Shown here: positions 9,181 to 13,529 of the stretch, piece by piece
How positions within the stretch are numbered: position 1 is the stretch's first letter
How the letters are laid out: every line of letters begins with the position of its first letter
DNA from: Oceanospirillum sp.
GTDB lineage: Bacteria > Pseudomonadota > Gammaproteobacteria > Pseudomonadales > Halomonadaceae
Length of the DNA: 24,000 nt
Assembly (NCBI GenBank): GCA_047518265.1
Contig: JAKZRG010000091.1
Span: 1-24,000 of the forward strand
Direction: 5' to 3'
Translations under genes and position numbers: made by a program
The notes under the pieces: generated by a model
What the model saw: the letters and a program-made list of their open reading frames with translations, nothing else
The model's database searches: none
What the model was told of the DNA's origin: nothing

Positions 9181-9939
9181 TTACTGCAGGAGTTCATCAA
9201 GATATTTTTGGATTTTTCCTTTCTCACGTAACTGCTTCATCCCCTTATTAAACTGTTCTGTCAGGTGGGGGCCTTTACCATTTTTCTTGGAAAAGAGAAC
9301 ATAGCTGTACTGCTCTTGTAATGCTTTTGAATGATGGGTAAAAAGAGTAACGTCACCTTTGAAGTGTTTTTTGAGGGTGTAATAGCCAATCTCTTTTATC
9401 TGAGGGAATAGGTCTATTCGACCCGCTTTTAATTTTTTGTAATTTAACTCTCCTGAAACGGCCTTAGCCACGGACATTTTCTCATCTTTTATGGCCCGAT
9501 CCATTTCAGCACCATAGGTAAAACCATTAATAACTCCGATGGTATAGGGTTTTAAATCTGCTAATGTATTCCAGTTGAAAGCATTAGATTTTAAGTGGAA
9601 AAATACTTGCTCTTCTTTAATTACCGCATCACTGAAGTGAAAATGCTGCAGACGTTCATCCGTTTTGAACCAAACAAGAGTGCCTTCATAATTTTTGCCC
9701 TCTTGAGCTTCTAAGTAAGCACGCTTCCAGGGAAAATAACTAATTTCTACTTGATAGCCTACTGCCTCAAAGGCTTCTGTTACGATCCTTGCTGCCACAC
9801 CGCCATGGGGAAGTGTTTCCGAAATATAGGGTGCATATTCACCCGTAGTCAGTCGAACAATTTTCTCCTGAGCAAAAACAACGTGGTGATTACTACTAAA
9901 GATGGTCAGCATATACACCAGAAAAATCCTATATATCAT
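9181..9939 (-). CDS. Periplasmic substrate-binding protein, family 3 (amino-acid/polar type), orphan with no adjacent permease or ATPase
   Basis: I prefer ATG 9939 (GAGG SD 8 nt upstream; MIYRIFLVYMLTIFSS signal) over the track's TTG 9969. LTTGEYAPYISE, YFPWKRAY and GRIDLFPQ are typical of SBP_bac_3 proteins. Confidence 0.75.
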   Translation of the reverse strand: MIYRIFLVYMLTIFSSNHHVVFAQEKIVRLTTGEYAPYISETLPHGGVAARIVTEAFEAVGYQVEISYFPWKRAYLEAQEGKNYEGTLVWFKTDERLQHFHFSDAVIKEEQVFFHLKSNAFNWNTLADLKPYTIGVINGFTYGAEMDRAIKDEKMSVAKAVSGELNYKKLKAGRIDLFPQIKEIGYYTLKKHFKGDVTLFTHHSKALQEQYSYVLFSKKNGKGPHLTEQFNKGMKQLREKGKIQKYLDELLQ

Positions 9940-10094
9940 GATCACAACCTCTGCACTCGATGACGACAACTAACGACACCAAAAATTATAGTGTACGTCA
10001 TAGCTGTTCGCGTTTGAGTTTTAAGATTTTATCCTCCACAACCTCATTTTTAATCTATCTTGCATAGTAGGCTTTTGTTTATTTAAGCGATGGC

Positions 10095-13000
10095 ATGACA
10101 CATATAAATAGAATATTTATCGTTATATTTGCCCTACTCATAACCCTCATATCAAAGGGGATTTCAGCTGATGATGGAGATATTCACATTGCTGTCATTA
10201 GCCCTAAGGAAGTAGAGCCTGTGGGGATAAAGGGCTTTCGGCTTTATATGGAAGAAATTAATTGGCAAACACCTAGGGGGACAAAGATTACACTAGATCA
10301 TTACTTTGATAACAATAACAAAGCTCAAGCCATTTCTGTTGCTAAGCAAATTGCAAAAGATAACCGAGCAGCTCTTGTTATTGGTCACAACTACAGCTCA
10401 ACGTCATCAGTCGCTGGAAAAATTTATGCTAAGCACGGTATTCCAGCGATTAGCTACAGTGCAACAAATCCAAGTGTCACTAAAGATAACCCTTGGTATT
10501 TCCGCACGATCTTCAATGATTCTAGTCAAGGCAGTTTTTTAGCGTACTACGCTATTAAAACGCTGAACTATAACCAACTCACCGTGATATATGAGCCGGA
10601 TAAATACGGTTCCTTTCTTGCCCAAGTATTTCAAGAAAGTGCCTATGAGTATGGGGCTAAACAGGTAGAAAGTTTTGAGCTTGATATGCAAGCAGAGCCA
10701 GAAGATCGCTATAAGGCAATCCTAGATAAAATTGCCAAAAATAAAGCTCAGTCAGGTTTAATTTTTATGGCAACACATGCAGATGAAGGTATCGCTTTGG
10801 TTAAAAAACTCAGAGATGAGGGGATAAAAAATCCGATTATGGGCCCAGATTCATTTTACTCAACAAGCTTTATCACAGGCTTTAATCAATTCCCTCTTGA
10901 ACAACATAGTCCAGGCCACTATAGCAACGGCATCTTTGTCTCTGCTCCTATTGTATTTGATGCCGCCAATGCGGAGGCTCAAAGCTTGAAGCACAACTAC
11001 TTTAAAACCTATGGAGAACATGCAGATTGGGCATCTGCTTATGGTTACGATACTGCCAAGGTAGTGGAATCAATTATTGATATCAGCCGATCTGGAAAAA
11101 AATCAAATACTCTCTCTGCCTCTACGAGCACTCCCGAAGATCAATCAGTTCTACAAGCGACCCTAACAAGACAACGTGTTGCGATACGAGAAGCATTAGC
11201 AAGCATTAATAGCCCGAAAAATGCAATTAAGGGAGCTACTGGACTCAATTATTTTAATGAAGATGGGGATGCTATCAAGCCGATTTTTATCGCTGTTTTA
11301 CATGGTAAGAGTGCTGTTTCGGGTCTAATACAGTATACCGATGTGCCTAATATTGAAGAGGTGTATCAACTTGATGAGCAGATAGATAGTGGACACATAA
11401 TCAAAATGACCGATCGTTTTATGTATAAAAAATCGGTCATTTTCACAGGAGTTAAAATCCATCACATTGGTAAAATAAACCAACAAAAAAATACCAGCGA
11501 GTTGGATTTCACATTATGGTTTCGCTATAGAGGTGACTTTAATCCTAATCAGATCGAGTTCACTAATAGTGTTGACCCTTTAACCTTGGCAGAACCCGAG
11601 ATAAAAACAGAATCAAACAATATTAGCTATCAAGCATTTAGAGTTAAAGGTGTATTCCGTAACAACTTTATGGATGATATAGAACGCAGGGTCCAAGTCA
11701 GTATCGGTTTTGCATTGCGCAACACAGAAGTTGACCGCAACAGCCTGCTTTACATTAGCGACATTATGGGACTTGGACTAACAGGTGATATGGAACTAAT
11801 CGATTATGTAAAAAAGCAGAAATTAGCGGATGAAATTTCAGGTTGGCAAGTGCAAAACGCCAGCATTTTTGAGCGTAGTATTAATATCGATAGCCTAGGT
11901 TTACCACAATATATAAACCTTACCGATGCGACCGTGCCTTACTCCCAATATCACTACCTGATAGATCTAAAACAAACCGGATTTCGTTTAAGTGATCTCA
12001 TTGATCAAGGAAAAACAGGTCTAATCGCAGCACTATGTTTCACTATTTTATCTAGCATTTATCTATCCCGATTTCTATTTCTGAGACGTTTCAAATCTAA
12101 TCTGATTCTCTTACGTTTACGTTGGTTAATCATCACCTTATCTTGGGTGTTATTACTCAGTACCAGTGAAACATGGTTAAGCTACAATCTTTTCTCTGAT
12201 ATTGATGTGCATTTTCAAAAATGGATATTACATGCTTACGATCTCAGCTGGTGGATTATTCCAGCCATGTTATTGGTGCACGCCGCTGATGCTTTTATTT
12301 GGAAAACACTTCAGGCTAAAACAGGTCGCCCTGTACCCGGTGTTATCCAAAGCTTATTAGCCTTTATTATTTATACACTGGCTCTCTTTGCAATTGTGGC
12401 TTTTGTTTATGATCAAAAGCTAACCGGCTTGCTAGCAACATCAGGTCTATTAGCCATGATTATTGGCTTAGCGATACAGATGAATCTATCTAATATATTC
12501 TCGGGGATAGCATTAAACCTAGAGCAGCCATTTAGGGTTGGAGATTGGGTTAAAATTGGTGAACACGAAGGACAAGTTATCGATGTTAATTGGCGTGCCA
12601 CACGATTATTGACCAGAGTTAAGCACGAAATAAGTATCCCCAATACCCCTGCGGCTGATACAGCCATAATTAATTACAGTAATAATCAGGGAGCAACCCG
12701 TCAAAGCTTAATGGTTGGAGTGCACCCAGTACACCCGATTGAAAAGGTAAAACCTCTGTTAATTGCAGCGGCATTCAAGCACCCCAATGTTTTAAGTACA
12801 CCTAGACCTCATTGTACCTTTGCAGGTATTAAAGAAGGTGTCGCTCAGTATCGTCTGATCTTCTCTTACACAGATTACTCGCTTACCTTTCAGGTTGTTG
12901 ATCAAATTTGGGGACAGATGATCCAGAACTTTAAGAAAGCAGGTATCAACTATGTACCGCCAATGCAACGTATAGAGATGAACAAAGCTAAGCCGACACC

Positions 13001-13529
13001 ATTTTTACACCGTGAAAATAGTGATTTTATTAGTCAAGCAGCGATCTTTTCAGGTATGCCAGAAATATTTAAACAAGATCTGAGTAGCAAATTGATTGAA
13101 CGGCACTATGACGTTGGGGAGTTTGTACTTAAAAAATCAACCATGGAGGATTCACTGTTTATTATCCAGTCTGGAGTTGCAACGATTTTAAAGGAAAATG
13201 AAAAGGGTATCTCTTTAGAACAACAGCGCTTAGGCATAGATGATTTGATCAATACGGAAATACTATACCGTGATGGGTCACGAGACTATTCTGTTCGAGC
13301 TGTGACTACCTTGAGGATTTTGGAAATCCAAAAAGAAGTATTAATGGAGCTTTTCCAGAAATACCCAGAGTATCAGCCAATTTTTGACCACAATATTCAA
13401 ATTCTAGTGCAAGAGCTTAAAGACAACGAAGGTAGCCCACCTATTCAGGATTACTCTAAAATGGGGAATCACTTTGCCTGGATGGAGACAAAAAATGTCG
13501 CACCAAGCAGTAAAGCGAAGAAAAATTAA
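10095..13529 (+). CDS. Multidomain MscS-family channel: signal peptide, type-1 periplasmic binding domain, beta-rich periplasmic module, 5 TM, MscS pore/beta domain and a C-terminal cNMP-binding-like domain
   Basis: 1144 aa. The signal is MTHINRIFIVIFALLITLISKGISA. PBP1/LivK-like blocks are at aa ~27-400 (ALVIGHNYSSTSSVAGKIYAKHGIPAISYSATNPSVT, WYFRTIFNDSSQG, LTVIYEPDKYG). Five hydrophobic helices span aa ~642-808. The MscS signature is SGLLAMIIGLAIQMNLSNIFSGIALNLEQPFRVGDWVKIGEHEGQVIDVNWRATRLLT...ISIPN (aa ~782-850). The cNMP-like domain at aa ~983-1100 includes IFSGMPEIF...YDVGEFVLKKSTMEDSLFIIQSGVATI...VRAVT. Confidence 0.8.
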   Translation: MTHINRIFIVIFALLITLISKGISADDGDIHIAVISPKEVEPVGIKGFRLYMEEINWQTPRGTKITLDHYFDNNNKAQAISVAKQIAKDNRAALVIGHNYSSTSSVAGKIYAKHGIPAISYSATNPSVTKDNPWYFRTIFNDSSQGSFLAYYAIKTLNYNQLTVIYEPDKYGSFLAQVFQESAYEYGAKQVESFELDMQAEPEDRYKAILDKIAKNKAQSGLIFMATHADEGIALVKKLRDEGIKNPIMGPDSFYSTSFITGFNQFPLEQHSPGHYSNGIFVSAPIVFDAANAEAQSLKHNYFKTYGEHADWASAYGYDTAKVVESIIDISRSGKKSNTLSASTSTPEDQSVLQATLTRQRVAIREALASINSPKNAIKGATGLNYFNEDGDAIKPIFIAVLHGKSAVSGLIQYTDVPNIEEVYQLDEQIDSGHIIKMTDRFMYKKSVIFTGVKIHHIGKINQQKNTSELDFTLWFRYRGDFNPNQIEFTNSVDPLTLAEPEIKTESNNISYQAFRVKGVFRNNFMDDIERRVQVSIGFALRNTEVDRNSLLYISDIMGLGLTGDMELIDYVKKQKLADEISGWQVQNASIFERSINIDSLGLPQYINLTDATVPYSQYHYLIDLKQTGFRLSDLIDQGKTGLIAALCFTILSSIYLSRFLFLRRFKSNLILLRLRWLIITLSWVLLLSTSETWLSYNLFSDIDVHFQKWILHAYDLSWWIIPAMLLVHAADAFIWKTLQAKTGRPVPGVIQSLLAFIIYTLALFAIVAFVYDQKLTGLLATSGLLAMIIGLAIQMNLSNIFSGIALNLEQPFRVGDWVKIGEHEGQVIDVNWRATRLLTRVKHEISIPNTPAADTAIINYSNNQGATRQSLMVGVHPVHPIEKVKPLLIAAAFKHPNVLSTPRPHCTFAGIKEGVAQYRLIFSYTDYSLTFQVVDQIWGQMIQNFKKAGINYVPPMQRIEMNKAKPTPFLHRENSDFISQAAIFSGMPEIFKQDLSSKLIERHYDVGEFVLKKSTMEDSLFIIQSGVATILKENEKGISLEQQRLGIDDLINTEILYRDGSRDYSVRAVTTLRILEIQKEVLMELFQKYPEYQPIFDHNIQILVQELKDNEGSPPIQDYSKMGNHFAWMETKNVAPSSKAKKN

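Follow-up and report, generated by a model that had tools for sequence, protein, structure and literature searches.

Can the ligand-binding domain of one ion-channel superfamily be carried in nature by the pore of another? This question is raised by a single gene within a 24,000-nucleotide stretch of Oceanospirillum sp. DNA (GenBank assembly GCA_047518265.1, contig JAKZRG010000091.1, positions 1 to 24,000 of the forward strand), which is called the window below. The gene is an uninterrupted open reading frame (ORF) of 1144 codons at 10095..13529 (+), and an initial annotation made from the letters alone had proposed that its part at 11421-12014 resembles the extracellular beta-sandwich seen in ligand-gated ion channels of the pentameric class (pLGICs), attached to an MscS pore. 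These coordinates were correct, corresponding to aa 443-640 of the ORF, and all quoted peptides were found in its translation. Our analysis supported the graft of a pLGIC-type extracellular domain (ECD) onto an MscS pore by the predicted fold, by architectures shared with relatives, by a profile-profile match and by intermediate sequences. The best explanation, to which we assign a probability of roughly 85%, is that a cassette of a type I periplasmic binding protein (PBP-I) and a pLGIC ECD is carried by a bCNG-type (bacterial cyclic nucleotide-gated) MscS channel, the pore having been swapped at the boundary between the ECD and the membrane.

Predicted fold of the middle module

The module was modelled with AlphaFold2 (AF2) on aa 425-665 using an alignment of 14 homologous modules, which yielded an N-terminal helix, a beta-sandwich and a long transmembrane (TM) helix (predicted local distance difference test, pLDDT, 73.9; predicted TM-score, pTM, 0.66). 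The AF2 model of the entire 1144-aa protein (pLDDT 74.8) gave the sandwich at higher local confidence, with means of 72-92 for 10-residue blocks across aa 431-560. The module starts slightly earlier than first noted, at aa ~426, with an N-terminal helix (H426-432). The strand pattern of prokaryotic pLGICs, to which the initial annotation had likened the module, agreed with the AF2 models: beta1 corresponds to VIFTGVKIHHIGKI and beta2 to TSELDFTLWFRY, IEF makes up a short strand, ISYQAFRVKGVF forms a single long strand (E510-522) followed by the strand VQVSIGFALR, and ISGWQVQNAS opens another long strand (E584-599). The final strand, YSQYHYLIDLK (E613-627), is equivalent to beta10 and is joined to the first TM helix (H638-661) by a short linker.

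The comparison of the AlphaFold model with known structures by Foldseek, which had been proposed as a check, was positive. All 50 of the PDB matches listed were chains of the acetylcholine-binding protein (AChBP), with E 2.8e-8 to 1.2e-7, probability 1.00 and TMt 0.52-0.58; no other fold was present among the matches listed, and 1060 matches were found in all at E<1e-3. With the full-length model as the query, the best PDB matches were Leu/Ile/Val-binding proteins of the LivJ/LivK type (TMt 0.78-0.88 for closed forms), and PBP-I alone was represented among the matches listed, which contributed nothing on either the ECD or the MscS region.

The loop between the strand that ends at aa ~555 and the Trp584 strand (aa 556-583, ~11760-11843, the loop-F region) is long, partly helical (H568-579) and poorly predicted, and several relatives (P0013, P0015-P0018) carry an extra insertion of ~20-40 residues in it. 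In pLGICs, the loop-F region faces the membrane side, and in the protein encoded in the window (the window protein) it may represent a new contact to the MscS TM domain.

Relatives that link the module to ligand-gated channels

An exhaustive phmmer search of 1.84 billion cluster representatives with the module revealed 638 representatives at E<1e-3, 425 of them at E<1e-10. When 166 proteins were classified with purpose-built hidden Markov models, 126 were composed of PBP-I, the module and MscS, about half of these with a cyclic-nucleotide-binding (cNMP) domain, and 21 were composed of PBP-I, the module and a pLGIC transmembrane domain (Neur_chan_memb); the remainder were fragments. As to whether the module always occurs with MscS, its homologues are therefore found on both MscS and genuine pLGIC transmembrane domains. 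PF02932 (Neur_chan_memb) scored above its Pfam gathering cut-off in P0146, P0157, P0109 and P0159, and two of these four proteins have faint PF02931 matches inside the module. The pLGIC-linked matches of the search share 27-34% identity with the module, as exemplified by P0066, which carries a pLGIC transmembrane domain (30% identity, BLASTP E 4e-36). When the profiles of MscS-linked and pLGIC-linked modules were compared with each other, hhalign returned a probability of 100% (E 6e-77, 205 columns).

The pLGIC-linked relatives also provided the sequence link to solved pLGICs, with E 1.7e-9 for P0159 and 1.2e-5 for P0066. The solved channels matched by these two proteins include ELIC, GLIC, GABA-A receptor chains (chimeras included) and DeCLIC, and the alignment to an ELIC chimera passes through the ECD. 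We aligned the window module with P0159 (MAFFT) and P0159 with the extracellular domain of ELIC (HMMER), and this chain of alignments confirmed three of the correspondences proposed earlier, placing window 'IEFTNS' over ELIC 'LEFINV', window 'YQAFRVKGVFRNNF' over ELIC 'YNARFLGSFSNDMDF', and window 'MDDIERRVQ' over the ELIC Pro-loop 'RLFPFDRQQ'. Based on the relatives with PF02932 domains, the hhalign probability of 100% and the matches of P0159 and P0066 to solved pLGICs, the module is an extracellular domain of the pLGIC type, from the bacterial sub-family with fused PBP-I that Tasneem et al. described in 2005 (PMC549065). We also searched for ECD-MscS proteins that lack the PBP; the candidates were N-terminally cut fragments that still contain the PBP tail, so PBP-I and ECD behave as one cassette.

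Layout of the channel gene

The gene and its parts are as follows, all on the forward strand.

10095..13529 (+), whole gene: signal peptide, PBP-I, pLGIC-type ECD, five TM helices, MscS cage and cNMP-binding domain
10095..10166 (+), signal peptide, aa 1-24, MTHINRIFIVIFALLITLISKGIS; the centre of its hydrophobic stretch lies at aa 10-18, with a putative cleavage site
10167..11354 (+), PBP-I domain, LivJ/LivK-like, aa 25-420; Pfam PF13458 and PF01094, and model matches
11370..12014 (+), pLGIC/AChBP-type extracellular beta-sandwich, aa 426-640; AF2, Foldseek, hhalign and BLASTP
11664..11699 (+), Pro-loop in degenerate form, counterpart of the Cys-loop, aa 524-535, NFMDDIERRVQV; aligned with F.F.dYPFD.Q of pLGIC-linked relatives
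11973..11975 (+), site of the pLGIC pre-M1 arginine, here Gln627; column statistics
12006..12407 (+), outer helices TM-a to TM-d, aa 638-771; model helices, hydropathy and hhalign
12420..12524 (+), MscS TM3-type pore-lining helix, aa 776-810, containing GLLAMIIGLAIQMNLSNIFSGIAL; NCBIfam models and model helix H776-810
12525..12950 (+), MscS cage in the cytoplasm, made up of beta-domain and alpha-beta domain, aa 811-952; PF00924, with PF21082 weak
13101..13364 (+), C-terminal cyclic-nucleotide-binding-type domain as in bCNG channels, aa 1003-1090; PF00027 and a beta-roll in the model

The PBP-I domain is matched by PF13458 (E 5e-25, aa 44-335) and by PF01094 (E 3e-18, reaching aa 395), and the model gives it a complete LivJ/K fold. 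The full-length model contains five TM helices, at aa 638-661, 670-702, 705-743, 749-771 and 776-810. The MscS beta-domain family PF00924 matches aa 798-862 (E 1.3e-18; 67.3 bits, with the cut-off at 20.2), starting inside the end of the pore helix, and the NCBIfam models of MscK, MscM and MscS cover aa ~750-963, with starts at aa ~750-774. PF21082, for the alpha-beta part of the cage, matches the window protein weakly at aa 880-952 (E 0.15); it passes in the relatives P0142 (E 6.4e-5), P0004 and P0008, and the cage region of the window model has the expected strands and helix. For the cNMP-binding domain (aa 1003-1090), PF00027 gives E 1.7e-9 and 38.0 bits, with the cut-off at 27.5. Judged by eye, this domain has a phosphate-binding cassette that is only partly canonical (…GIDDLIN…SRDYSVRA…), and cyclic-nucleotide binding is uncertain.

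From the signal peptide and the five TM helices, it follows that PBP-I and the ECD are predicted to be periplasmic, with the MscS cage and the cNMP domain predicted in the cytoplasm. Residues Q795, N797, F802-G804, N808, E810, P812, F813, G816 and D817 are invariant in the family, and because they sit in the pore helix and the beta-domain, the protein likely forms a conducting MscS-type pore.

The junction and the changes in the module

The homology between the MscS-linked and the pLGIC-linked architectures stops at the last ECD strand, and as judged from the alignments the junction is exactly at the ECD/membrane boundary. PF02932, which describes the M1-M4 pore domain, had no Pfam match in the window protein. 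The idea that the first TM helix retains part of pLGIC M1 was considered and rejected, as hhalign of TM-a to TM-d against M1-M4 gave a probability of 1.8%; these four outer helices are unrelated to those of pLGICs.

When alignment columns were compared between the two classes, both were found to conserve 'YKT.VVYTG', the loop-D motif 'LWFRY.G', the loop-A motif 'I.F.N', 'Y..YR.KG.F', 'YV.D..GM', Trp584, the loop-C motif 'G.P.Y/F' and 'YS.F'. The Pro-loop positions Y530, P531, D533 and Q535, the pre-M1 Arg627 and F632 are 81-100% conserved in pLGIC-linked modules, in contrast to at most 17% in MscS-linked ones. For the Pro-loop, these values are 100% versus 17% for Pro, 90% versus 12% for Tyr and 95% versus 8% for Asp, and the pre-M1 Arg is present in 100% of the pLGIC-linked relatives versus 13% of the MscS-linked. 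The window protein itself has D-D-I-E-R-R-V-Q where pLGIC-linked relatives have dYPFDxQ, and Gln627 at the site of the pre-M1 Arg. The earlier remark that the FPFD core is not conserved was thus accurate, and the window protein has no Pro-loop proline. The Pro-loop and the pre-M1 Arg belong to the core of the ECD-to-pore coupling interface in pLGIC gating. The lost positions cluster in the Pro-loop and directly ahead of the membrane, and the missing FPFD is thus a signature of the pore swap and not evidence against homology. Between the clade of the window protein and distant members, identity is 30% for the ECD, 25% for the PBP, 27% for the outer TM helices and 35% for the MscS core. The ECD is therefore not decaying overall, and its remaining parts, including the loop-D Trp, loop-A 'IxFxN' and loop-C 'GxPxY', have been kept under strong selection.

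Evolution and distribution of the chimera

We compared the phylogenetic relationships of 147 ECDs in a maximum likelihood tree, where the pLGIC-linked and the MscS-linked sets are split by one branch (SH-aLRT 100). Six more distant ECDs of PBP-pLGICs, taken from genomes, keep YPFD or FPFD. After these were added, the 126 MscS-linked ECDs still grouped as a single clade, with a support of 100 and a branch length of 0.33, and the distant ECDs fell among the pLGIC-linked ones; when the tree is rooted there, the MscS-linked clade is nested in a grade of PBP-pLGICs. Since the MscS-linked ECDs form one clade nested among those of PBP-pLGICs, one swap is enough, and the simplest reading is a single event in which an MscS channel took the place of the pLGIC pore, with wide radiation afterwards.

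Among the best 150 hits, the family of PBP-I, ECD and MscS accounts for no fewer than 126 clusters (50% identity), and the chimera is widespread in nature. The distribution of the module is patchy: on either pore type, it is present in 44 of the 401 sampled genomes of the phylum (27 of the 329 genomes of high quality), and none of the sampled genomes from the window's own family or order had a match. The genome of the window encodes a second paralogue on another contig, a 1115-aa protein of PBP-I, pLGIC ECD, MscS and cNMP domain (G000:C77:16349-20047; L003 ORF 76..3423, reverse strand). By eye, this paralogue closely resembles P0003, a protein with 64% overall identity to the window protein. 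With two paralogues in the genome, heteromeric channels are conceivable.

Comparison with known channels

The closest known systems on the periplasmic side are the PBP-I-fused prokaryotic pLGICs, also called ART-LGIC or Pro-loop receptors (Tasneem, Iyer, Jakobsson & Aravind 2005, PMC549065), which contain the same cassette, with a LivJ/K-type PBP-I directly before the homologous ECD. Their ECDs share about 27-30% identity with the window module (27-34% for the pLGIC-linked search matches) and the hhalign probability of 100% reported above, and the binding-loop motifs are common to both. These receptors have an M1-M4 channel, the YPFD motif and the pre-M1 Arg, whereas the window protein has an MscS/bCNG channel instead. 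The solved structures AChBP, GLIC, ELIC and DeCLIC have the same ECD fold as the window module, the passage from pre-M1 into M1 in pLGICs resembles that from the last strand of the module into the first TM helix, and DeCLIC also has an additional N-terminal periplasmic domain. The direct sequence similarity of these four proteins to the window module is below HMMER detection, and the window module differs from solved pLGICs in its long, partly helical loop between the seventh/eighth strands and the W584 strand, in the missing Pro-loop proline and in the absence of a pLGIC pore.

On the membrane and cytoplasmic side, the window protein resembles bCNG channels (Caldwell et al. 2010, cited in PMC13591265), in which an MscS pore and cage are likewise followed by a C-terminal cNMP-binding domain. 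As described there, bCNG channels have no large periplasmic sensor, whereas the window protein has ~615 periplasmic residues and extra TM helices before the MscS core. MscK and MscM of E. coli, like the window protein, carry a large N-terminal periplasmic domain on an MscS-type core, and the NCBIfam models of these two channels are the best matches to the MscS core of the window protein. In PMC13591265, which deals with many solved MscS-family structures, the periplasmic domain of MscK is predicted to form two helical bundles, in contrast to the PBP-I and beta-sandwich ECD seen here, and both MscK and MscM are given 11 TM helices, compared with 5 in the window protein.

Proposed mechanism and alternative explanations

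The odds are, in our estimate, about evenly balanced that the protein works as an MscS-type channel in which tension gating is biased by a periplasmic ligand and by a cytoplasmic cyclic nucleotide. The input from the outside would be a small periplasmic molecule, probably amino-acid-like, with the PBP and/or the interfaces of the ECDs as its binding site; the input from the inside would be a cyclic nucleotide, and both would set the tension threshold. On the periplasmic side, the ECDs would be arranged as a ring over the TM domain, with seven subunits if the MscS part is heptameric like its solved relatives. Such a ring could act through the covalent link from beta10 to TM-a and also as a clamp, whose tightening or loosening would alter the ease with which the TM paddles expand. 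This proposal would parallel the periplasmic rings of MscK and MscM, which dilate and disassemble, respectively, on gating, as stated in PMC13591265. A bolder proposal, which we put forward tentatively and regard as rather doubtful, is that the cassette is a portable periplasmic sensor used on two unrelated pores that differ in symmetry, and that on MscS it forms a seven-membered ECD ring whose ligand-controlled tightening or loosening, and not the Pro-loop/M2-M3 pathway, gates the channel. If true, the seven-membered ring would be the first natural non-pentameric assembly of the ligand-binding domain of Cys-loop receptors.

Several observations weigh against the graft as we read it, or against parts of the mechanism. 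The direct check against PF02931 (Neur_chan_LBD), which had been suggested at the outset, gave no Pfam match in the window module or in 14 MscS-linked family members, even at E<=10, and no model of Pfam or NCBIfam matched aa ~420-650 at E up to 10. A search of PDB sequences matched no pLGIC with a 14-sequence profile and nothing relevant with phmmer of the single module sequence. With these direct tests negative, the link to the superfamily rests on the intermediates and on the fold. The ECD model is of moderate confidence, with residues 548-561 and 606-609 below pLDDT 50; the examination of module homologues covers the best 150 of the 638 hits; and both trees come from a quick search with an assumed root. 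As the canonical coupling residues are lost, classical pLGIC-style transmission from the ECD to the pore cannot be assumed. To our knowledge, the ECD rings of all solved pLGICs are pentameric, and a seven-membered ring is unprecedented. Ligand binding, channel activity and a seven-subunit stoichiometry of the window protein are proposals. According to PMC13591265, bCNG channels gave E. coli no protection from osmotic downshock, and tension gating of the MscS type may therefore not be the main function.

Given the negative direct searches, with PF02931, with the single sequence and with the small profile, one could regard the module as a generic Ig-like or jelly-roll beta-sandwich whose likeness to pLGICs is convergent or due to chance. 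This explanation is effectively refuted by the occurrence of the module, at 27-34% identity, before PF02932 domains, where it has the hallmark YPFD Pro-loop, by the profile-profile probability of 100% and by the AChBP identity of all 50 Foldseek matches listed. A more serious alternative accepts the homology and assumes that the ECD binds no ligand but serves as a rigid spacer or oligomerization ring, holding PBP-I, as the sole sensor, above the MscS channel. The loss of the Pro-loop YPFD and the pre-M1 Arg, the presence of PBP-I in every full-length member and the complete LivJ/K fold of the PBP would all agree with such a role. It is nevertheless unlikely in our view, as the ECD is better conserved across the family than the PBP (30% vs 25%), and the classical binding-site loops (loop-D Trp475, loop-A IxFxN, loop-C G602/P604/Y606), which a spacer would not need, are conserved.

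The remaining alternatives concern the pore. Seven subunits are expected from the MscS side and five from the ECD side, which leads to the question as to whether assembly could follow the ECD, making the protein a pentamer and thus a member of the MscS family with non-heptameric stoichiometry. The rings of solved pLGICs and AChBP are all pentamers, and the interface loops of the ECD are conserved between pLGIC-linked and MscS-linked forms. However, every solved MscS-family channel is, as far as we know, a heptamer, in which the cytoplasmic cage together with the TM3 bundle fixes the stoichiometry, and of all parts of the window protein the MscS core shows the highest conservation, which makes a pentamer very improbable. 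It is also improbable, though less so, that the protein conducts nothing and acts as a receptor signalling across the membrane, its MscS scaffold passing the state of periplasmic ligand occupancy on to the cytoplasmic cNMP-type domain or to partners. This would be in line with the failure of bCNG-type MscS proteins to rescue cells from osmotic downshock (PMC13591265), with the absence of the cNMP domain from about half of the family and with a gene neighbourhood that is not conserved and has no obvious transport context, but the pore helix and the beta-domain are the best conserved parts, as expected of a working pore.

Novelty and significance

The protein has a new domain architecture built from known families. 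Full-text literature searches, with subscription-only literature outside their scope, found no description of a fusion between a pLGIC ECD and MscS. Such a fusion is described neither in Tasneem 2005 (PMC549065), where MscS is not mentioned, nor in Jaiteh 2016 or Malcolm 2015, and text searches of the 2026 review of MscS-like channels (PMC13591265) and of the 2021 review of solute-binding-protein signalling did not find it. Members of the family are named 'ABC transporter substrate-binding protein' in public sources, a systematic mis-annotation that is corrected by the present finding.

The five-fold, ligand-gated pLGICs and the seven-fold, tension-gated MscS channels are two of the most intensively studied superfamilies of channels, and they have been regarded as unconnected. 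Here, the ligand-binding domain of the pLGIC superfamily has been naturally transplanted onto an MscS pore in a large family and kept under selection. This constitutes a natural experiment on the modularity of ECD-to-pore coupling and on whether an ECD ring can change its stoichiometry. The decay of the Pro-loop and the pre-M1 Arg in the absence of the native pore also helps to separate ECD features that serve ligand binding or assembly from those that serve coupling. The window protein is a candidate ligand-gated MscS channel and could serve as an engineering scaffold.

Neighbouring genes and further observations

The gene adjoining the channel gene, at 9181-9969 (-) and divergent from it, encodes SBP_bac_3, a family-3 solute-binding protein of the PBP-II type with a signal peptide. 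PBP-II genes adjoining bacterial pLGICs were noted by Tasneem et al. 2005 (PMC549065). At the homologous locus of Oceanospirillum sanctuarii, this neighbour is absent, and the two loci support no conserved partner or operon; the channel gene stands alone.

Four relatives of ~1180-1220 aa (P0071, P0123, P0141 and P0149) are composed of PBP-I, ECD and a pLGIC transmembrane domain, followed by ~430-440 residues past the last TM helix, and thus represent a longer form of the pLGIC architecture with an extended C-terminus. Two proteins of ~380-400 aa from two other genomes (L005 445..1644, forward strand; L006 506..1645, reverse strand) match only the first half of the MscS-linked ECD profile, with E 3e-8 and 1e-7, respectively, and Pfam gave them no significant match, only chance-level ones at E >= 0.03. 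Both have an N-terminal TM anchor, a beta2 motif 'WSANFY(V/L)WF', a 'FDTMR(A/V)P(L/I)E' segment similar to a Pro-loop and, at the C-terminus, four TM helices. Judged by these features, they resemble highly divergent Pro-loop receptors of a stand-alone kind, which PF02931 and PF02932 fail to detect.

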